Assembly (NCBI GenBank): GCA_051439605.1
Contig: JBFRWN010000018.1
Coordinates: 1 to 30,867 of the forward strand
Reading direction: 5' to 3'
Source: Synechococcus sp.
GTDB lineage: Bacteria > Cyanobacteriota > Cyanobacteriia > Thermostichales > PCC-7336
DNA: 30,867 nucleotides
Shown here piece by piece: positions 2,405 through 20,423 of the stretch (positions are counted from its first letter, which is position 1; each line of letters begins with the position of its first letter). A model generated the notes under the pieces. That model had not been told where the DNA came from and searched no databases. It saw nothing but the letters and a program-made list of their open reading frames with translations. The position numbers and the translations under genes were made by a program.

Positions 2405-4306
2405 CTATCTTGATTCAGCCCATTCTGTCTCGACAATGGATGTTCCGGGAAATTGAATCGGATTTCCCAATCCCTGAATTTGTGCTTGCAACTGATTCAA
2501 CCTCTCCCGCTGACGGGGTAGACCGGATACCAAGCTGGCAGGAGCAACATCCTGGGCGATCGCAAAGGCGGCGGCATTCCCTGCTCCAGAACCAATGGCC
2601 CATTCTACTGGATGAACTCGGTAAGAGGCAGCCGCTATGTGTGTGGCCGCAATATTTTTTGCCCCCGCCAGGAGATTGTCAATTCGTTGCGGAATCAGGC
2701 TGCGCAGTGGAATTTGATAGGGATAGCTAAGCATTACCCCCTCGTAATCGATATCTGCAGGGTCGGGAGAGAAGTCTGCTTCTTGCACACAGGCATGAAA
2801 ATCAATTGGATACTGACCGACACCGACTGAATCGCTGAAGATGTAGGGACGCCCTCGTTGTAGCTCTGACTCCTCCACGGAAATATCGCTCTCGTATATC
2901 AAAAAACCATCGGGATAGCCGAACCCCGGTCGCCCTAACAGTCTGCGGCTTTCGCGAATATAGGGGTATTTCGACAAGCCGCTGGCGGTACCCATGGGTG
3001 CATCTGCCCCAGTCATCAAACGATAGCGGAAGTTGTAGTTGGGTTCGAACTCGGGATTGTCCCCCAACAGATAATCGGTGCGTCCCGCCATTAGCCAATA
3101 GAAATAGCCCAGCGCATGTCGCTCTCCTTGGGCCAGTGCCTCCTGACGCAATCCCCCTTTCCAGCCTCCAGGTGCTAGCTGACCGGAGTCCTCTAGTTGT
3201 GCTTGGGTCAAAATAAAGTTGCGATCCGGGCTGGAAATCCGCCAATCATTCCCCCAGGTCCAATTCTGCATTGACTGGTCGCCGACTCGAATCGCCTCGG
3301 CATCGTTAATGTTGCTGACGTCGACCTCCCCCTTAATCCGGCGGTAGGTAAATACAGCCGCAAAGTCAAACCGATCCTGCTCGAAGCTGTAATAGCGACC
3401 GTGTTCGGGTTGGTCGTAGAATTCTGGTTTGACCGGTACTTGAGGGGTGGCTGTATGCTCCATCACAAAGGTGTAGGTAAACCCTTGCGTGCAGTACGGG
3501 GTCGACTCCTCTTTCGCGGAGGGTTCCCAATAACGGGCCAGACTGTCGGTTCCCAATAGGTAAGGGACATCTGCTAAGGGCCACAGTTCCCCTGTTTCGG
3601 TGGCATCAATTACCATCCAGGGTACCTGAAGCCCGAGGCGATCGCTGGGGGGTACGAACGAGATGAGTTGTTTGTCCCAGTCTGAGTTGGGTTCGGGATT
3701 GTAGAACTCAAGAATATATTCGGACAAATTTCCCCGTTGTCCCCCGTCCAGTTCGGGACGTCGGGGGATGTTGGCGATCGCGTTCACGGATTCGACGAGG
3801 TTGTCGCTGGTTTCCACCGAAGATACGACTGTGTCGGTAAACAGCCTGAGTTGACCGGAATCGACATAGGGCTGCAGCATCTCCAGCAGCACTTGGTGTC
3901 CAACCTGCGGTGAGAAGCACAGCACGCTCACCCAGCATTTTCCAGGATTGGGATCGCCATCGTAAGCCTCCACCACGCGATCGCGGAACTCGCTATAACC
4001 TGAGGGGAAAAAATCGTTGTCCCGCTGTTGGGGACGCTCGTCTAATGCGGACACCCCCTGAGCAGTTGCCTGCCCGCCAATCCAATTGGTAATTTCCGTC
4101 ATGCACACTTGGCGACCCAATCGCAGGCTGTCATAGGCCGCCGCTACTCCCCCCAAACCCCCACCCGCAATCAAGATTTCGCATTCCACCGCTTGTCTTG
4201 CTGGCTCGTTCTGTGCATGGGTAGGTGAGGCTGATAAGGGCAGCAAGAGGCCAACCCCTACTAACACAGATAGCGATAGCGAACAATTCCTTGGGGATGC
4301 TTGCAC
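2405..4306 (-). CDS. Secreted FAD-dependent oxidoreductase (FAD_oxidored-like family)
   Basis: 633 aa with an N-terminal signal peptide, Rossmann motif ILIAGGGLGG, and WIGGQATAQGVSALDE, IDATETG, PYIRESRR and SYRVHPVEWAIG motifs typical of this cyanobacterial family. Confidence 0.88.
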   Translation of the reverse strand: MQASPRNCSLSLSVLVGVGLLLPLSASPTHAQNEPARQAVECEILIAGGGLGGVAAAYDSLRLGRQVCMTEITNWIGGQATAQGVSALDERPQQRDNDFFPSGYSEFRDRVVEAYDGDPNPGKCWVSVLCFSPQVGHQVLLEMLQPYVDSGQLRLFTDTVVSSVETSDNLVESVNAIANIPRRPELDGGQRGNLSEYILEFYNPEPNSDWDKQLISFVPPSDRLGLQVPWMVIDATETGELWPLADVPYLLGTDSLARYWEPSAKEESTPYCTQGFTYTFVMEHTATPQVPVKPEFYDQPEHGRYYSFEQDRFDFAAVFTYRRIKGEVDVSNINDAEAIRVGDQSMQNWTWGNDWRISSPDRNFILTQAQLEDSGQLAPGGWKGGLRQEALAQGERHALGYFYWLMAGRTDYLLGDNPEFEPNYNFRYRLMTGADAPMGTASGLSKYPYIRESRRLLGRPGFGYPDGFLIYESDISVEESELQRGRPYIFSDSVGVGQYPIDFHACVQEADFSPDPADIDYEGVMLSYPYQIPLRSLIPQRIDNLLAGAKNIAATHIAAASYRVHPVEWAIGSGAGNAAAFAIAQDVAPASLVSGLPRQRERLNQLQAQIQGLGNPIQFPGTSIVETEWAESR

Positions 4307-4642: not shown

Positions 4643-6235
4643 CTAATTGACTTCTGTTTCTGTTAAAGAAATAGACTCTGGTGCCAAACTAAAATCGTAT
4701 AAAGCAGTCGCGGCATCGGATAATTGCTCGAAATCGAGTTGAGTCCCCACCAAGTCTAGATCCTGTAAAACAAGATCGAGTTCCCCTTTTTCAAGGTCAA
4801 ATTCGGTGCCCAGCAGCCAAACTCGAGAGTTGCCACGTACCTGTAAGAGTTCGTTGATGACTTGTTGCCTGGTTGTGATGTCGTCTGGTTCAAGGCGAGT
4901 TTTCGGAGCAATCGCATGTTCTCTGAGTTGGGGGTATTTAAGGGTGTAGTACTCAAACGCCCTTTGAGCTCGGGGGAAAACGTAAATGACATCGTTAGCA
5001 GCGTAATGGTCATTCACGTATGCAATCAGAGGACGGAGGCGATGCACTGAATACTGATGGGGGTTGGCGATCGTGGCTAGCTGCCGTCCCGCTGAAGGCA
5101 TCCACAACAAACATAACAGGATCACTCCAAACACCTGACAGTATCGAGGTCGCTTCTTTATCTCTAGCGTCCAAGCAATTCCGCACGATAAAATTAACAG
5201 TGCGTAAGGAACCAGATAAAGAATTAATCGTTCTCGAAAAGGGTATTTCTGGAGGAATGACGCCGCTAGCGTTACCACAAATGGGGAGAGCAATGCTAGC
5301 AGAGTGAGGCGATTATTACGCCACAGCACAACACATCCGCAAATAAATGCCAGCATGGCTAATACTTCTGCAACTCCCAGGAATCCGAGAGGACGGTAAA
5401 AGAATCTCCCCATCGCATCCAACAGCCACACAATGTCGAAGATAGAGCTGGGATATCTTGCAGACCAAGATTCCACCAGTGATGAATTCCCCAATGCATC
5501 AGCAACGCTGATCCAATACATGAAGATAAAGCTGGCGATCCAGCATGCGTAGGCAAGTAGTCTCGACCTAAATAGTTGCCAGTAGTGGTTGACTGGATTT
5601 GCAAACAAAACCGTGCTTTCCGCTGCCACCAACGTGAAGGCAGCAGGATATGAAGTCAAGATACAGAGGGAACCAACGACCGAGACAAGCAGGGTTTTAA
5701 ACCGATTGAATGAATGTCGTCTAGAGCCCCACAGAATTGAAAACAGCAGTAGAGACGCACACAGGTCTACAATGTAAGGCTTGAGTTCGTTCGAGTAATA
5801 GACCGGATATCTTAAGACAGCAAATAAAGATATTGCTATGGCTGCTGCCGATCCTGGCACTATCAAGAAAGCCAAACGATAGAACAAAAATAAAGCCGCA
5901 ATTCCCGCCAAAAGAGGAAAGAGTCTGAGGGCCAGTTCGTTGTGCCCCAACAGTTGAGTCGCGAACCTCTCGATCCAAAGAAAGAGGGGAGGAGCCGCCT
6001 GATTGTGGTCGAGGGGTGACAGGAGTTCAATGTAGGACCGATCCCGAAGATTCATGGCGATGCCGAGCTCGTCGAACCAGAGGGAGCGGTTGCCAAAATA
6101 CAGCGATAGGCGAACAACAATCCCAAATAAGACTGCGATCGCCGCCCAGATTTTCCAAGGATCGCTGAGCACATCGCTGAACCTGCCACGATCGGGGGGA
6201 GGCGAAAGATGATTGTGCTCATCTTCATTTATCAT
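4643..6235 (-). CDS. GT-C fold membrane glycosyltransferase (GT39/ArnT/PMT-like), paralogue 1
   Basis: Polytopic membrane protein with NRSLWFDE loop motif, PPLF, ALRLFPL, ELKPY and YPFRERL. Start uncertain (ATG at 6235, or the upstream TTG at 6268). Confidence 0.85.
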   Translation of the reverse strand: MINEDEHNHLSPPPDRGRFSDVLSDPWKIWAAIAVLFGIVVRLSLYFGNRSLWFDELGIAMNLRDRSYIELLSPLDHNQAAPPLFLWIERFATQLLGHNELALRLFPLLAGIAALFLFYRLAFLIVPGSAAAIAISLFAVLRYPVYYSNELKPYIVDLCASLLLFSILWGSRRHSFNRFKTLLVSVVGSLCILTSYPAAFTLVAAESTVLFANPVNHYWQLFRSRLLAYACWIASFIFMYWISVADALGNSSLVESWSARYPSSIFDIVWLLDAMGRFFYRPLGFLGVAEVLAMLAFICGCVVLWRNNRLTLLALLSPFVVTLAASFLQKYPFRERLILYLVPYALLILSCGIAWTLEIKKRPRYCQVFGVILLCLLWMPSAGRQLATIANPHQYSVHRLRPLIAYVNDHYAANDVIYVFPRAQRAFEYYTLKYPQLREHAIAPKTRLEPDDITTRQQVINELLQVRGNSRVWLLGTEFDLEKGELDLVLQDLDLVGTQLDFEQLSDAATALYDFSLAPESISLTETEVN

Positions 6236-6354
6236 GGGGCATTCACAGATAACTTGCATAAGTTGCAATGTATCTGTTTATCTGCATGTTTGACCAAAAA
6301 CTGACTGTATCTCCCTTCCACCCAGCCACCGGAAACTGCTTGTCTACTCAAGTG

Positions 6355-6436
6355 TGTAGCTGCAGTCATTTCAATTAGAACAGCTTATTTTAGATCTAAC
6401 GATCGAGTGACCTAACTGTTGTTCAAACCCGCTTCA
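6355..6436. repeat. Degenerate copy or end of the 95-bp element family
   Basis: TGTAGCTGCAGTCATTTCAATTAGAAC (6355-6381) matches the end at 27300-27326 at 20/27 positions. A weaker opposite end may be present at 6409-6436. Confidence 0.5.
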
Positions 6437-7759
6437 GGCAACATATGCAGGCACCATTAAACAAATGCGGCTGCCTTGATTTTTCCCCAAAGAGTTCGCC
6501 GAAATCTTCCCCCCCATGGATTCAATCAACTTTCTACAGATCGTTAAACCGACTCCCGCCCCACCAACTGTTCGGCGTAGATAGTCCGCCTCTTGATAGA
6601 AGCAATCAAACACCTTTTCCAAACATTCCGCTTCAATCCCGCAACCCGTATCCGAGACAACGATTTCAACCATGCGATCTTGAGAGCTGCAAGCCCAGTC
6701 ATTTCCCCATCCAGAAGCACCGCACCCTGATGCACCACATCTTGCCGAAATCACAATCCTGCCATTCGCCCCCGAGAATTGATAAGCATTCTCTAACAGT
6801 TGCATCAACGTGAAGACGAGTTTGTCTTCATCTGCTAGCAAATCCGGAACCTGCTCGGAACAATCCAGCGTAATCGTGGGTAACACCCGCTGTTGATGCC
6901 GTGCTGAAAATCCAATCAGAGCGAGTTCGAGTGTTTCCCGCAGGTCAACCCGTTCTAGGTTGCTTGTCACCAATCCACGTTCCAATCGGGACAGTGTAAA
7001 AAAGCTTTGGATTAGCCGATTCAACCGGTCTAAATCCGATTCCGCCACCTCTAAAAATGCTTGTCGATCGGTTTCGGACAGGAGGTGAGCATCTTCGTTC
7101 AGAGTTTCTAAACTGACTTGAAGAGAACACAACGGAGTGCGCAGCTCGTGACCCACAATGGCCAGTAGCTTACTGCGTACCTGTTCGAAAGCCTCTTGCT
7201 GCTCTTCAACAGGTAACGCAGGGTCCGGGATAACGATCGGCTCTGAAAGCTGAAAGTCGGCTAGTGAGTTTTGCCAGTCAATCTCCTTACTCGATCTGCT
7301 GTCGCCCGTGCGACAAGAGGCTACGACTTGTTCTGAATGAACTGCCACTTTCAGCAATTCAAAAGAAGGATTCAAAGGACATGCGGATTGCAGATCGCTC
7401 TCGTCTATACCGTCAGACTGTTCGGACGCCGCAAATAACGCTAGGCATTCCCGCACCAACTCCCCCAGTCCTCTTGTTTCCTGCAGGGCAATGTCCAAAA
7501 TCGATATTTTTTTGGCAACAGAAGAAAAATTCCAACCTGTTTTCAAAGTCTCCAGACAGGCTTGCAAAGTGGATAGTGGTGTCCACAATTGCCAACCGAT
7601 AATGGCAATTACCTTGCTTTCCAGGCGTCCCAACGACTCGTATCGAGAAAGGTTATGACTATCCCTAGCGCTCAATCCTTGACTGAGTTGGCCGTGGTGA
7701 TGGTGTGACCTGACTGAAATCGTCATGTGTGCAATCCAGGATTTTGCCTGCTGCAACAA
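6434..7759 (-). CDS. Cytoplasmic histidine kinase with duplicated HisKA (first copy degenerate) and HATPase_c; no recognisable sensor domain
   Basis: H-box AIVGHELRTPL (His codon 7148-7150), N-box LLENAYQF, G1 SDTGCGI, F-box VFDCFYQ, G2 GGAGVGL. An upstream copy reads AIIGWQLWTPL. Start TTG 7759 or ATG 7726. Confidence 0.88.
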   Translation of the reverse strand: MLQQAKSWIAHMTISVRSHHHHGQLSQGLSARDSHNLSRYESLGRLESKVIAIIGWQLWTPLSTLQACLETLKTGWNFSSVAKKISILDIALQETRGLGELVRECLALFAASEQSDGIDESDLQSACPLNPSFELLKVAVHSEQVVASCRTGDSRSSKEIDWQNSLADFQLSEPIVIPDPALPVEEQQEAFEQVRSKLLAIVGHELRTPLCSLQVSLETLNEDAHLLSETDRQAFLEVAESDLDRLNRLIQSFFTLSRLERGLVTSNLERVDLRETLELALIGFSARHQQRVLPTITLDCSEQVPDLLADEDKLVFTLMQLLENAYQFSGANGRIVISARCGASGCGASGWGNDWACSSQDRMVEIVVSDTGCGIEAECLEKVFDCFYQEADYLRRTVGGAGVGLTICRKLIESMGGKISANSLGKNQGSRICLMVPAYVA

Positions 7760-8271
7760 CCTCCTTCAGAGAAGGGGACTGTGATTCAAGCCCTAAAGCC
7801 TCAGCCGGGAAAGCTCTGAAGGAGCAAGCTGATCGGGCTGGACGATTGTAAATAAATATTACAAAATGTATGTAAGGACATTAAATGTGTGTTCGGCATC
7901 AACCGAGCCGTCTGCAGTTTCCCGAGATTCAACATGCAATTGCAGCGTTCCTCTACAATTCCCCATCGAGCCGTTGATTCTGCCACTCAAGTCAGGCATC
8001 CCTGACAGGGGCAGGGCCAACATGTTAGGGATGGGATCTCCCTCGCGCCCTAAAAAAGGTCGACCCACTAAAAAAGTGGAAAGACAAGTGAATCAAAGAG
8101 CGCTATACGAACGAACACGGTATCCCCGCCTCAAAACTCCCTAGGCCGACTGTTTAGAACGGTCGAACTGATTCAGTGATCCCCCTTTAACCTAACCCCA
8201 TTCTAATTTCTGGTTATTTGCTCCAGGCCAATGATTGCAATCTGTTCACCTTCTACTCAGCCACTTACCTT

Positions 8272-8997
8272 ATGCCTTCTCTCTTAGTGATAGACAACGA
8301 TTCTTCACTTCTTGAGTTACTCGTTCATAACTTCAAACAGTCAGGTTATGACGTGCATACAGCCACTGAAGGAATTCAGGCTCAAGCCTTGGCATGTCAA
8401 CTTCTGCCCGATCTCATCATCCTGGAAAGAGTCCTGCCAAAGATAGATGGCCTAACGGTTTGCCAGCGATTGCGACGCAACGACCGCACCGCCCATCTGC
8501 CTATTCTGATGATGTCATCTCTCAGTCTGACAGCCAATATTGTGGAGGGGTTTAATGCCGGGGCCGATGACTATTTAACCAAACCATTTGAGATAGAAGA
8601 ACTCTCGATCAGGGTGCGGGCATTGTTACGGCGATCGCACAGGATGTTGGGTAAAACCCAATATTCTGAAATTCTGAGTGTTGGACCGCTGACATTAATT
8701 CCCGAACGCTTAGAAATTGTGTGGTTTGGCGATCGGGTTAGACTGACTCAATCTGAATTTGATATCTTGTTCTGCCTCTTGCAGCACCACGGGCAAGTGG
8801 TGTCTTTAGGGGAAATTCTTCAGGATGTATGGGGATACGAGCCCGATGACGACCCTGCAGCAGTTCGAGTTCACATGCGGCATTTACGTCGCAAGTTAGA
8901 AATAGAACCCAGCAAGCCAAAATACCTCAAAACTGTTTACGGTGCGGGCTACTGTTTGGAACTCCCCATTACTCTAGATTTACCCAAAACCGGCTAG
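8272..8997 (+). CDS. OmpR-family response regulator, divergent RpaA paralogue with Glu at the phospho-acceptor position
   Basis: Receiver plus winged helix. RpaA-like signatures include [55 protein letters not shown] and [13 protein letters not shown]. Likely start is ATG 8272 (MPSLLVID). Confidence 0.9.
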
Positions 8998-9136: not shown

Positions 9137-10027
9137 TCAGTTGAAAAGGCCCAATTGACTGTCGGTGCGGGCCTCATTGAGGGCGTTCTGCACTTCTTTT
9201 ACCCCTAACAACTGTTTCACGTCCCGAATCAGGTCTTCCCCCCACAAGTTATCTCTCAAGGTCTGAACGTCACCGTAGGTGTAGTCCAGCTGCATCGCCT
9301 TAACCCCTAGTTCCACAGCCCGTTCCGTTTCCCCTTGCACGTAAAGGACCGTTGCCAGCGCCAGCACCGGTTCTGCTGCCGTATCGTCCAGCTCGATACT
9401 GGCCTCAAATTGAGGAATCGCAGCCTCCAGATTGCCTAACTGATATTCCAATAGGCCAATGTTGTTGATCGATGGCCAAAACTCGTCATCAATGTCTAGT
9501 GACGTTTGGTAAGCAGCGCGAGCTTCGTCATAATTCTTCAGTAGAAGATGGGTGTTCCCCAAATCAAATAGCCCCTGTAGACTTTCCGGCTCTAGTTCCA
9601 GCCCTCGCTTTAGCGAGTCAAGGGCCGCAAAATAGCTCCCTTGTCGAACGTAGGCAGACCCCAATGACAGCAAGAGTTCGGAATCATCGGGAGATATTTT
9701 GCGAGCGCGGTTCAATACGGCGATCGCCTCGTTAAAGTCACTTTGCTGCAGATATAATCGCCCTAATATCGTCAGGATATCTGGATTGTTGGGGGCTAAC
9801 TGAGAAGCTAGGGTGATGCGAGAAATCGTGGCTTCGGGGGATGCCTCCCGGATTTGATAGGCCCCCAGAGCATATAACGTCAAATCCAGACCCTGCTGTT
9901 CCATCTCCTGACTGTTGGGGACCAAGGGTCTATAGAGCACCTGCGCTCTGGCTGGCGAACTGCAGAGTGCCATACCGAGAGCCACAAAACTTGCGGCAAT
10001 GGCAGATTGAATCGGGCGAAAACGCAT
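9137..10027 (-). CDS. Secreted tetratricopeptide-repeat protein
   Basis: Signal peptide MRFRPIQSAIAASFVALGMALCSSPARA and multiple TPR units (LG..Y...G.Y..A.......L...P). ATG 10027 avoids overlap with the upstream gene. Confidence 0.88.
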   Translation of the reverse strand: MRFRPIQSAIAASFVALGMALCSSPARAQVLYRPLVPNSQEMEQQGLDLTLYALGAYQIREASPEATISRITLASQLAPNNPDILTILGRLYLQQSDFNEAIAVLNRARKISPDDSELLLSLGSAYVRQGSYFAALDSLKRGLELEPESLQGLFDLGNTHLLLKNYDEARAAYQTSLDIDDEFWPSINNIGLLEYQLGNLEAAIPQFEASIELDDTAAEPVLALATVLYVQGETERAVELGVKAMQLDYTYGDVQTLRDNLWGEDLIRDVKQLLGVKEVQNALNEARTDSQLGLFN

Positions 10028-10064
10028 AAACTTAAAAGTCCTCAGGGGGAGAGAGAGATGTTCT

Positions 10065-11213
10065 TTAGGGTTGTACGGGACGTTCCCAAACAAAACTCAC
10101 CCTCACGGTATCCCAATTTTCCTCTGTCTTCAGCACCTGAGCCCTTGCACTGGCCCCCGGAGGGACATCATTCGGGTCGAAGGCCACAACACGGGAGTCC
10201 ACTACCTGTTGATTCGATAAAAATTCAAACCGAGCCTGGGCGGATAGTGCCGTTCTCTGGCTATTGTTCACCGCATTGACCGTAATTCGGCTGCCTCCAG
10301 TGGGGGCAGCTTCTTCCTCGATATCTCCCACAATCACCAACTCAGTCTGAGAAACAGGAGAGGCCGCCACAGGGGAAGGGGTAGGGGGCGTCTCAGGGGG
10401 CAGGTTGGCGGCCGGGGGTGATGATGGAGCCTCTGATGAGGTGGGTGCTTGCTCGGTTGGGACGTTGGAAGAGGAAGAGGAGGGATCGGCGGCTGGGGGT
10501 GATGGTGGAGTTGGAACTTCCGATGGGGTGGGTGCTTGCTGGGTTGAGGTGTCAGCAGTGGCGGGGGTAGCAATAGCGGAGGCGGGGGGATTACTAGCGG
10601 GGGCGGAGGGTGCAGCTGCCTGCGAGCGTTCAGCAGTATAGAAAGCAACCGTTTTGGCCACTTCTTCTTGGAATAGCAAATACACATCGCGAGATTGGTC
10701 GGCGACGCGAGCTAGAGCGAGTCGATCGTCAGCAGTGGTCGGGATCTCCACCAGTTGGTTATCGACAGTGAGCAACAGGGTTTGCACTTGCTGGTTGATC
10801 AGGCGATCGAGGTAGGGAAACAGCGAGATCGTGCAGGCTTGGTCGAGGCTACCGATAGAAAGATTCGTACCGTCACTCAGAGTGAAGGCTGCTAGACCGC
10901 AGGACTGCGCCCCCTCTACTTCTAGAGGAACGCTGAGATTGCTTCGGTTGCTGTTCGTTACAGAAATCTGAAAATCCCCCTCTGTATGGGTCCAGCCATG
11001 AACCACATCTACCGCGGCACTGGTGGTTTCCTCTGTGAAATACTCTCCTGCCTGAACCTGTTGTAAGAGCTTGGGTTGAGAACCCAGACCGACGATCGCC
11101 GCGATGGAAACCGCTAAACCCACGCCTTCCCAAAGAACCCTCTTGCGCTTCCCACTGTTGCGAAGAAACTCAACCTGACCTGCCACCTGACTGTTTTGCA
11201 TGCGCGTCATCAC
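10065..11213 (-). CDS. Membrane-anchored or secreted protein with Pro/Ser/Thr-rich linker and C-terminal FxLYD-like Ig-fold domain
   Basis: 382 aa. Basic stretch plus hydrophobic segment near the N-terminus, long P/S/T/A linker, and C-terminus RITVNAVNNS..ARFEFLSNQQVVD...VPPGASA. Confidence 0.75.
   Translation of the reverse strand: MMTRMQNSQVAGQVEFLRNSGKRKRVLWEGVGLAVSIAAIVGLGSQPKLLQQVQAGEYFTEETTSAAVDVVHGWTHTEGDFQISVTNSNRSNLSVPLEVEGAQSCGLAAFTLSDGTNLSIGSLDQACTISLFPYLDRLINQQVQTLLLTVDNQLVEIPTTADDRLALARVADQSRDVYLLFQEEVAKTVAFYTAERSQAAAPSAPASNPPASAIATPATADTSTQQAPTPSEVPTPPSPPAADPSSSSSNVPTEQAPTSSEAPSSPPAANLPPETPPTPSPVAASPVSQTELVIVGDIEEEAAPTGGSRITVNAVNNSQRTALSAQARFEFLSNQQVVDSRVVAFDPNDVPPGASARAQVLKTEENWDTVRVSFVWERPVQP
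10407..10546 (-). repeat. Intragenic imperfect direct repeat encoding two T(Q/E)QAPT.SE.P..SPPAA units
   Basis: 10407-10459 and 10488-10546 share GGCGGCYGGGGGTGATG...GGTGGGTGCTTGCT.GGTTG. The second unit has 6 extra nt. Confidence 0.75.
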
Positions 11214-18704: not shown

Positions 18705-20423
18705 TCAAGGGCCCGCTCTGATAGAAATGCTGTTGCCAACTGACGCCAGTTGGCGCTTATAGCGAGATTGGAATGAATTCTGACACTCTGAACTTGTGTG
18801 GCTTAGATCGTATAAGTAAACAAATGCACCAACCTCTCGAAAGGAATCTATTTGCTCGCCCATACAATTGAGGTAGTTCGTAACTAAGTCGTTTTCTTCA
18901 TCGATCCAGGCATGAGAAAACAGGACCCAAACACGTGGATTTCCGCGCAGCCGATCTAAGTCTTTGTAATAGCGAACGCGTTCTTCCTCCGAAACGCTGC
19001 GACCATCAACCTCATCTAGGTCATCTACGCCTAAACTATAATCCCCTGCCTCATAGCCATAGGTTTTGGCATAAAACTCAAACTGACGGATGCCCCTCTG
19101 ATAAACGTATAAAATATCTTCCGGCTCTTGATGCTGTTTGACATACTCAAGAACAGGCTTAATCTCCTCTCTATGAAATGGCCGATGAAATAAAGGCAAT
19201 GTATTTTGTAGGGGTTGGCTCAGTATCAAAATGGAGACGACAAACCCAATTCCTTTCAGGGGTAGGTTGTGAATCTTACACAATCGATACATCCCTTCTG
19301 CAATTAAAATCATGATAAAAGGAGACAGAAAGAAGACTAACCGGCCCTCGAATGGATACTTGCGCAAGAAGGCGGCAAATAGCGTTATCAAAATTGGGGA
19401 TAAGAGTATCAGCAGTTCGCCTGACTTCCGCTTTGCGAAAGAAAAACTCCCCATTATGAATGCGAAGAGTCGCAACAGCGCGATCGCAACTCCATACCCT
19501 ATAACTTCGTTTCCCGGATTGGCATAGCCGAGGGGTGTGTAAAAGAAGAGGCCAACTCTTTCAACCAGCCATAAGAGAATATCAATTGGATTGTATGAAT
19601 CCGGGTAGGCTCCCTTTGACTGCCACGAATTTTGAAGTGTTTCGTTAGAACTCAGATTCAGTACTGACAACAGATAGAACAGTAAGAAACTGACAAGCCA
19701 GCTTGCATAAATAATGAAGTTCTGACGGGTTAGCATTTGCCTTTGGACAACCCCAAGCAGATTTTTCAAGCTAATCCAAACTGAGTTAATCCTAGATTTT
19801 GAAGTGAAAAGAGGTCTCGTTTGATTCCAGTCTGTAACGATTAAGCTACAGGTAACACCCACCAGTACAAAAATAGCTGGATGAGAGAACCATACAAGAC
19901 TGAAACCAGCTACAAGTAGAATAATTCTGTTTGATGTAGAAAATCGATATTGCAGTTGTTTGGCAATCCAAAAGCAAAGCAATGCGATGGTTACATCAGT
20001 TGAGTACTGCTTGACCTCAGTTGAGAAATAAACGAAAGAATCTGAGAAACCCACCAGTACTAGAGCCATTAGGATGACATCGTTTGTCAGGTATTGACGG
20101 GCAATATAGTAGAAAATAACGAGTGTTGTAATTCCTCCGATCAGGGGGAAGAGTCGAAGTGCGTATTCATTTGCCCCTAATACCTGAGTTGCAAACTTCT
20201 CAAGCATTAGAAATCCAAAGGGTGCTCCCTGATCGTAATCTAGAGGTTGCAATAACTCACGGTAGGATCGATGGATAATATTTAATGCTAAGACAGATTC
20301 GTCAGCCCAAAGAGAACGATTAAAACAATACTGTATAACTCGAACAGCACTCCCGAGGAAAATAATAATAACAGCAAATTGCTTGAAGTTAACCAGTCTT
20401 TTCTCTTGGTTTTTTGTGGGCAC
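18705..20423 (-). CDS. GT-C fold membrane glycosyltransferase (GT39/ArnT/PMT-like), paralogue 2
   Basis: NRSLWADE, ALRLFPL, EVKQY, YPFEGRL and RGNPRVWVL. Colinear with 4643..6235 and visibly more AT-rich than its neighbours. Confidence 0.87.
   Translation of the reverse strand: MPTKNQEKRLVNFKQFAVIIIFLGSAVRVIQYCFNRSLWADESVLALNIIHRSYRELLQPLDYDQGAPFGFLMLEKFATQVLGANEYALRLFPLIGGITTLVIFYYIARQYLTNDVILMALVLVGFSDSFVYFSTEVKQYSTDVTIALLCFWIAKQLQYRFSTSNRIILLVAGFSLVWFSHPAIFVLVGVTCSLIVTDWNQTRPLFTSKSRINSVWISLKNLLGVVQRQMLTRQNFIIYASWLVSFLLFYLLSVLNLSSNETLQNSWQSKGAYPDSYNPIDILLWLVERVGLFFYTPLGYANPGNEVIGYGVAIALLRLFAFIMGSFSFAKRKSGELLILLSPILITLFAAFLRKYPFEGRLVFFLSPFIMILIAEGMYRLCKIHNLPLKGIGFVVSILILSQPLQNTLPLFHRPFHREEIKPVLEYVKQHQEPEDILYVYQRGIRQFEFYAKTYGYEAGDYSLGVDDLDEVDGRSVSEEERVRYYKDLDRLRGNPRVWVLFSHAWIDEENDLVTNYLNCMGEQIDSFREVGAFVYLYDLSHTSSECQNSFQSRYKRQLASVGNSISIRAGP

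Follow-up and report, generated by a model that had tools for sequence, protein, structure and literature searches.

A 30,867-nucleotide stretch of DNA from a marine Synechococcus sp. (contig JBFRWN010000018.1; hereafter the window) encodes, at 8272..8997 on the plus strand, a 241-residue regulator of the OmpR family (P0001; ORF from ATG to TAG) that descends from the circadian master regulator RpaA and carries glutamate at the phospho-acceptor position of its receiver. RpaA is nearly always present as a single copy and works only when phosphorylated by the clock. Judged from its sequence, P0001 is a rare, constrained, RpaA-derived pseudo-receiver that belongs to a rare RpaA paralogue clade and is not RpaA itself. 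With moderate confidence, we regard it as an abundance-controlled, clock-independent regulator. The RpaA-derived variant is what is new here, the pseudo-receiver class being already known.

The receiver domain of P0001

P0001 comprises a Response_reg domain (residues 5–115) and a Trans_reg_C domain (residues 154–229), the receiver and winged-helix arrangement of the OmpR/PhoB family, and its best PDB match is S. elongatus RpaA (9dvt, E 8e-99; the next match is at 9e-41). An AlphaFold model derived from 7 sequences is of moderate quality (pLDDT 65.6) and confirms only the fold. In the alignment, the position of RpaA Asp53 is occupied by Glu52, encoded by GAA at 8425..8427 (plus strand) within a characteristic stretch of 11 residues, whereas the Asp paralogues and rpaA display GAT or GAC at this codon. 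The second acidic residue of the pocket, the metal-binding RpaA Asp10, is replaced by Asn9 (8296..8298, plus strand) and by Gly in the orthologue P0002. The acidic pocket of P0001 reads IDND, while S. elongatus RpaA (9dvt) displays LVIDDDS, with DLIMLDLMLP surrounding the acceptor. The side chains at the switch and +1 positions are Ser82-Ser83 (8515..8520, plus strand; Thr83-Ala84 in RpaA, by alignment), and Ser82, Tyr101 and Lys104 are all retained. In RpaA numbering, DD1, the switch Ser, Tyr102, Lys105, E111, R115 and R117 are unchanged. Thus, the Glu codon, the IDND pocket with its retained Ser switch and Lys, and the IDDD and DLIMLDLMLP motifs of RpaA are as the earlier note had described them, both in the ORF translation and in the alignment to 9dvt. 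On the dimer face, Ile90 of helix 4 (8539..8541, plus strand) takes the place of RpaA Lys91; this position is hydrophobic in all 16 clade members, is Lys in 204 of 212 RpaA-like sequences and is Ile in the independent Glu-type RpaA of genus g96 described below. An additional change, L54R, is common to P0001 and P0002 and is matched neither in g96 nor in PhoB.

The position of RpaA Asp10 (DD2) is described as metal-binding in a 2025 review (PMC12632262), which defines pseudo-receivers as proteins that score as receivers while lacking at least one of five active-site residues. P0001 scores 83.8 bits against PF00072 (cut-off 30.2) with both D and DD2 gone, and is classed as a pseudo-receiver because the metal-binding residue is missing (Asn/Gly) in addition to the acceptor Asp. 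RpaA orthologues are recognized by an Asp53 that SasA/CikA phosphorylate, where P0001 has Glu52, together with Asn9. In agreement with the phosphorylation-independent factor proposed by the earlier note, the residues for Asp phosphorylation are missing.

Authenticity and constraint of the glutamate

Of four runs compared, X1 may be the source. A contig from run X3, which comes from a different study, extends over 8373–8686 with a single differing letter, at 8622, and a contig from run X2, of the same study as the possible source, extends over 8413–8747, also with one differing letter, at 8499. For run X6, no listed piece covers codon 52. The orthologue P0002, encoded on an ENA contig, is 82% identical to P0001 and displays LERDL with Glu at the acceptor position and an IDGD pocket (Gly at position 10). 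Because both the contig of the second study and this orthologue carry Glu, the concern that the residue might be a sequencing error or private to the strain is dispelled; an error at codon 52 is ruled out by the X3 and X2 contigs together with P0002. At least a third of the words of the locus is present in six runs, all of them metagenomes of marine sediment and belonging to three studies.

Comparison of P0001 with P0002 reveals 91 of 100 identical residues in the DNA-binding domain and 97 of 120 in the receiver. Other samples show three variants of the regulator gene, every one synonymous, compared with 12 synonymous variants out of 20 for the neighbouring kinase gene, and dN/dS between the P0001 gene and an Asp paralogue is 0.14, with dS near saturation. 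Another assembly encodes an identical P0001 protein together with a kinase that has 11 substitutions in 440 residues (Fisher p 0.01), the two genes being placed side by side there on the basis of contig size.

Relationship to RpaA

P0001 is 64% identical to the RpaA of its own genome (G000) and 62% identical to S. elongatus RpaA, and it is changed at 28 of the 133 positions that are at least 95% conserved in 38 canonical RpaA proteins (11 in the receiver and 17 in the DNA-binding domain). The earlier statement that the protein follows RpaA closely was accurate as to descent and overstated as to likeness. The genome contains three RpaA-like genes, namely a canonical rpaA (on contig C28), an Asp-type paralogue (on C26, 62%) and the gene of P0001; kaiA, kaiC and sasA were also found, so that the canonical rpaA whose presence the earlier note wanted confirmed is accompanied by these clock genes, and the output path from Kai through SasA to RpaA is judged complete. 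In a maximum-likelihood tree of 69 selected rows, P0001 pairs with P0002 (100/100) at the end of a long branch (0.62), and the closest group to this pair consists of 14 Asp paralogues, all 16 proteins forming one clade (100/100). The 16-protein clade lies inside the 61-row cyanobacterial RpaA group with a support of 92/86 (unstarred), and not with RpaB or other OmpR regulators, which agrees with the ancestry that the earlier note had proposed to examine by phylogeny. Conservation of the glutamate, on which it had also called for a survey, is divided: Glu is kept in P0002, but 14 of the 16 clade members have Asp. A recent copy of the genome's own rpaA is rejected, as is grouping with the rpaA of its own genus (AU p 0.0096, 31-row quick tree). 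RpaA orthologues are further characterized by a single conserved copy, which in this genome is the gene on C28, P0001 falling in the paralogue clade.

Extra RpaA-like copies were found in one of 30 relatives (G001, with two Asp copies) and, by a count of rows, in one of the 183 genomes of the class that gave a match, where six candidates were scored for each genome. Of 212 distinct sequences resembling RpaA (blastp score of at least 250), 3 have Glu at the acceptor site. The paralogue clade was retrieved again by a profile search, which added no further Glu member, so that two Glu-type proteins were found in the clade, and none of the 80 loci returned by a metagenome scan with P0001 (58–63% identity) was of the Glu type. 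In non-photosynthetic relatives in the phylum (L117–L123), one or two Asp-type regulators resembling RpaA are present, at E of about 1e-56 to 1e-74.

DNA-binding domain and interaction surfaces

The winged-helix DNA-binding domain (8668..8967, plus strand) retains the recognition-helix core R-V-H-x-R-H-L-R, while the start of the helix is altered from IET to PAA. With respect to the TAAA-N7-TTAA boxes by which RpaA targets such as PkaiBC are recognized, the core R200–R207 is kept and I196P, E197A and T198A are changed. The position equivalent to 198 contacts bases in PhoB, and the DNA specificity of P0001 may consequently have shifted. The 17 conserved positions that differ in this domain, together with the start of the recognition helix, make a partly different regulon probable, of which only a part would be expected to coincide with that of the clock. 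Since P0001 belongs to a separate clade and the start of its recognition helix is changed, clock promoters are not necessarily among its targets. Many of its changes at conserved positions are common to the Asp paralogues.

The RNA-polymerase contact residues of RpaA have been defined (PMC12916501), and the corresponding positions E134, E146, E165, E186, Y190 and D194 read E, E, D, D, Y and D in P0001, four being identical and two Glu-to-Asp. The dimer-face segment (RpaA 91–122) is identical to that of the genome's own RpaA at 27 of 32 residues.

An independent D53E RpaA in a picocyanobacterial genus

In g96, an unrelated picocyanobacterial genus (family f3), the syntenic main rpaA displays D53E, T83S and K91I in three of five genomes (G353:C9, G431:C30 and G430:C12; L116/L132, L133 and L134, respectively) and is of the Asp type in G432 and G429 (L135 and L136). 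kaiA was found in none of the three Glu genomes and in both Asp genomes, and the same division applies to SasA above the cut-off. Neither kaiB nor kaiC was found in G431 or G430, and G353 has one kaiBC pair without kaiA; the two Asp genomes possess kaiB and kaiC as well. All of these genomes are drafts, 99% complete, from which gene absence is read, and the Glu genomes represent one evolutionary event. The g96 Glu-type rpaA is under constraint (dN/dS 0.08–0.21) and has only one or two changes at conserved positions of the DNA-binding domain. A common origin with P0001 is rejected (AU p 0.0002).

Besides D53E, the g96 Glu-type RpaA is changed at the conserved receiver positions 10, 55, 81, 83, 84 and 91. 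Five of these six positions are also changed in P0001 (hypergeometric p 3e-4), T83S and K91I being identical, while the three Asp paralogues checked share one of the six; K91I is older than Glu in the clade of P0001. The g96 Glu genomes are possibly a natural clock-less lineage with an always-on RpaA. Since Asn at DD2 with Glu at D is the typical signature of pseudo-receivers, the overlap may instead reflect relaxed constraint on the pocket after loss of the Asp rather than activation. Loss of kaiA as the sole correlate of Glu is ruled out by the small kaiA-less genomes G188, G198 and G435, which have Asp. The DICT family is absent from all five g96 genomes, Glu and Asp alike, and is thus uninformative in this respect. 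A second, diverged rpaA-like gene is present in all five (L121, L163–L165), from a duplication independent of that in the window; the four that were read have Asp and differ from RpaA in the recognition helix (H202Q).

A divergent kinase with a tandem DHp domain

On the minus strand, at 6434..7759, a histidine kinase of 441 residues (start codon uncertain) is divergent from the P0001 gene. It displays an N-terminal pseudo-DHp followed by an intact HisKA and a HATPase_c domain, retains the H, N, G1 and G2 boxes and has no sensor domain. In the dead N-terminal DHp the position of the His is occupied by Trp (GWQLWTP; 7592..7594, minus strand), most homologues having Tyr, while the intact H-box, GHELRTP, carries His204 by alignment (7148..7150, minus strand). 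A pattern scan of the upstream region that the two genes share (7760..8271) found neither an RpaA-box-like repeat nor a sigma-70 consensus, the box pattern being crude. Among the best 120 matches, 32 homologues are full-length and the rest are mostly DICT-GAF kinases or fragments of the C-terminal part. Within the family (P0121–P0151), the DHp copy ahead of the intact one has Tyr, Trp or Ser instead of His, and the third residue after this position is invariably Trp. The cyanobacterial DICT-GAF kinases are the closest non-tandem relatives of its HisKA/HATPase region (39–47% identity), from which the window kinase differs by having a His-less DHp copy instead of sensor domains. CikB, a possible counterpart of these DICT-GAF kinases, has been put forward as a regulator of RpaA.

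The Asp paralogue on C26 is also divergently paired with a kinase gene carrying the same dead DHp (108–524 of that contig, minus strand; L033), which is truncated after this domain, close to where the contig stops; a search of the assembly for the missing part found nothing. The genome thus holds an intact kinase beside a non-phosphorylatable regulator and a broken kinase beside a phosphorylatable one, and cross-wiring between the two loci is possible. Four further regulator/kinase pairs, all with Asp, share the exact size of the longest contig (34553, 16479, 8038 and 5450), an indirect sign of their linkage. At E of 1e-60 or below, the kinase was found in 2 of 401 genomes of the class (four candidates scored per genome), a genome-contig scan returned three unrelated kinases, and no tandem-DHp kinase was found near the two Asp paralogues of G001 or in a search of that genome.

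Comparison with known receivers

Substitution of Asp by Glu is in itself ordinary, as it is the commonest change in aspartate-less receivers (26%; PMC4395418) and Glu replaces the acceptor Asp in 3 of the 71 receivers of this genome. The same paper notes that Glu by itself frequently does not suffice and that ChxR does not owe its activity to it, and PMC12632262 gives DD2-to-Asn with D-to-Glu as the typical pseudo-receiver signature. The two other Glu receivers of the genome are at C13:71378-73891 and C126:8991-10883. The earlier reading missed how commonplace Glu is in pseudo-receivers, as well as the separate paralogue clade and the paired divergent tandem-DHp kinase.

PDB entry 2jb9 is E. 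coli PhoB D10A/D53E, changed at the same two pocket positions as P0001 although engineered, and is presumably one of two constitutively active PhoB mutants whose structures give a paper its title. That paper is cited in PMC4395418. When kaiBC is missing, light/dark viability is restored by the engineered D53E allele of RpaA and not by D53A (PMC5400509). P0001 resembles S. elongatus RpaA (9dvt; PMC12916501) and the D53E allele in fold, Thr/Ser-Tyr-Lys switch, recognition-helix core and Glu at position 53, but unlike the allele it occurs naturally and in addition to a normal rpaA, has also lost Asp10 and is paired with a kinase gene of its own. With ChxR, NblR, CmrT and WhiI (PMC4395418 and PMC12632262) it shares the typical signature, an OmpR-type output and presumed phosphorylation independence; in contrast to that class, it descends from a circadian master regulator and is divergent from an intact kinase gene rather than orphan. 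The pseudo-response regulators of the plant circadian clock, in which Asp is typically replaced by Glu (PMC12632262), are also clock-linked receivers, but their output domain and lineage are unrelated and the likeness is one of analogy only. Our literature search, whose coverage of subscription papers was poor, found no natural D53E RpaA, rpaA paralogue family or RpaA-derived pseudo-receiver; the supplementary lists of PMC4395418 and PMC12632262 might include RpaA-like ones.

Proposed mechanism and alternative explanations

From sequence and analogy, it is plausible that P0001 is constitutively on, and the natural D53E RpaA of g96, PhoB D10A/D53E and engineered RpaA D53E lend this always-on reading more support, though indirect, than the window alone. 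P0001 would be a phosphorylation-independent transcription factor originating from a lineage-restricted rpaA duplicate. Glu52 would engage the retained Ser82 and Lys104 while Ile90 would add a hydrophobic patch on helix 4, and we propose that the receiver would in this way favour the active dimer without a kinase. The dimer would bind RpaA-like direct repeats and could contact RNA polymerase like RpaA, its output being set by abundance and not by the clock. The neighbouring kinase would be unable to phosphorylate P0001 and would more likely serve an Asp-bearing relative. More tentatively, a natural phosphomimetic RpaA (D53E, T83S, K91I and a change of Asp10) may have evolved at least twice by the same route, running the essential RpaA regulon in g96 after loss of kaiABC and sasA, and here forming a clock-independent, always-on branch of RpaA-type transcription that coexists with an intact clock and has a tandem live/dead-DHp kinase dedicated to it.

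P0001 could otherwise act as a competitor or attenuator that binds RpaA-type boxes, or heterodimerizes with RpaA or the Asp paralogue, and thereby damps or redirects clock output in the manner of WhiI/BldM or CmrT. The near-identity of the dimer face to that of the genome's own RpaA, the two possible Asp partners, the two alpha-CTD contacts shortened from Glu to Asp and the existence of heterodimer models for pseudo-receivers (PMC12632262) are all in keeping with such a role. Y190, D194, E134 and E146 are kept, however, which is unnecessary for a pure blocker, and, in the g96 genomes in which sasA was undetected, the one RpaA-type protein whose DNA-binding domain is unchanged carries this set of substitutions as well; we consider competition unlikely, though worth weighing. 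It is improbable that P0001 is switched by its partner, with the tandem-DHp kinase or its dead DHp holding the pseudo-receiver on or off, or with P0001 acting as a decoy for the kinase. Both the pairing and the dead DHp are older than Glu, all four further partners have Asp, the full-length tandem kinases outnumber the regulators and the Asp paralogues of G001 do without such a kinase, which together weigh against the divergent pairing here and on C26, the four pairs of matching contig size and the intact catalytic boxes.

A decaying duplicate lacking any selected function, in which Glu would be a neutral step in the erosion of the pocket, could account for the very patchy distribution, the long branch to the Glu pair and the truncated kinase of the sister locus. 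It is very improbable, given that the ORF is intact in two lineages 82% identical, that the DNA-binding domain is more conserved than the receiver, that the variants are uniformly synonymous and that the protein is unchanged in the assembly whose kinase has diverged.

As a natural, constrained and non-phosphorylatable protein, P0001 is a test case for Asp-to-Glu as a real phosphomimic, a status that the 2025 review (PMC12632262) lists as open for pseudo-receivers. The g96 case suggests a route to dropping the circadian oscillator while retaining RpaA output, and positions 10, 83 and 91 are second-site changes that might give stronger clock-independent RpaA alleles. If inactive, P0001 would be another ordinary pseudo-receiver from a rare paralogue family.

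Other features of the locus

Origin of the contig from a distant contaminating organism is unlikely, as the flanking genes are 67–82% identical to those of same-genus genomes, although these have other neighbours at the flanking genes and the neighbourhood is not conserved. Downstream of the regulator, a TPR gene (9137-10093, minus strand; L193–L195) has counterparts adjoining kai genes in three of five relatives checked (G002, G004 and G005, not G001 or G003); it does not adjoin kai genes in the window. Two similar multi-pass membrane proteins are encoded in lower-GC parts of the window, at 4643-6268 and 18705-20423 (minus strand), the product of the former, which abuts the kinase gene, matching PMT_2 glycosyltransferase. 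The protein encoded at G001:C173:2515-3588 is 100% identical to part of that encoded at 2408-4306 of the window, while G001's own orthologue is 81% identical, and C173 is likely a mis-binned contig or a recent transfer.
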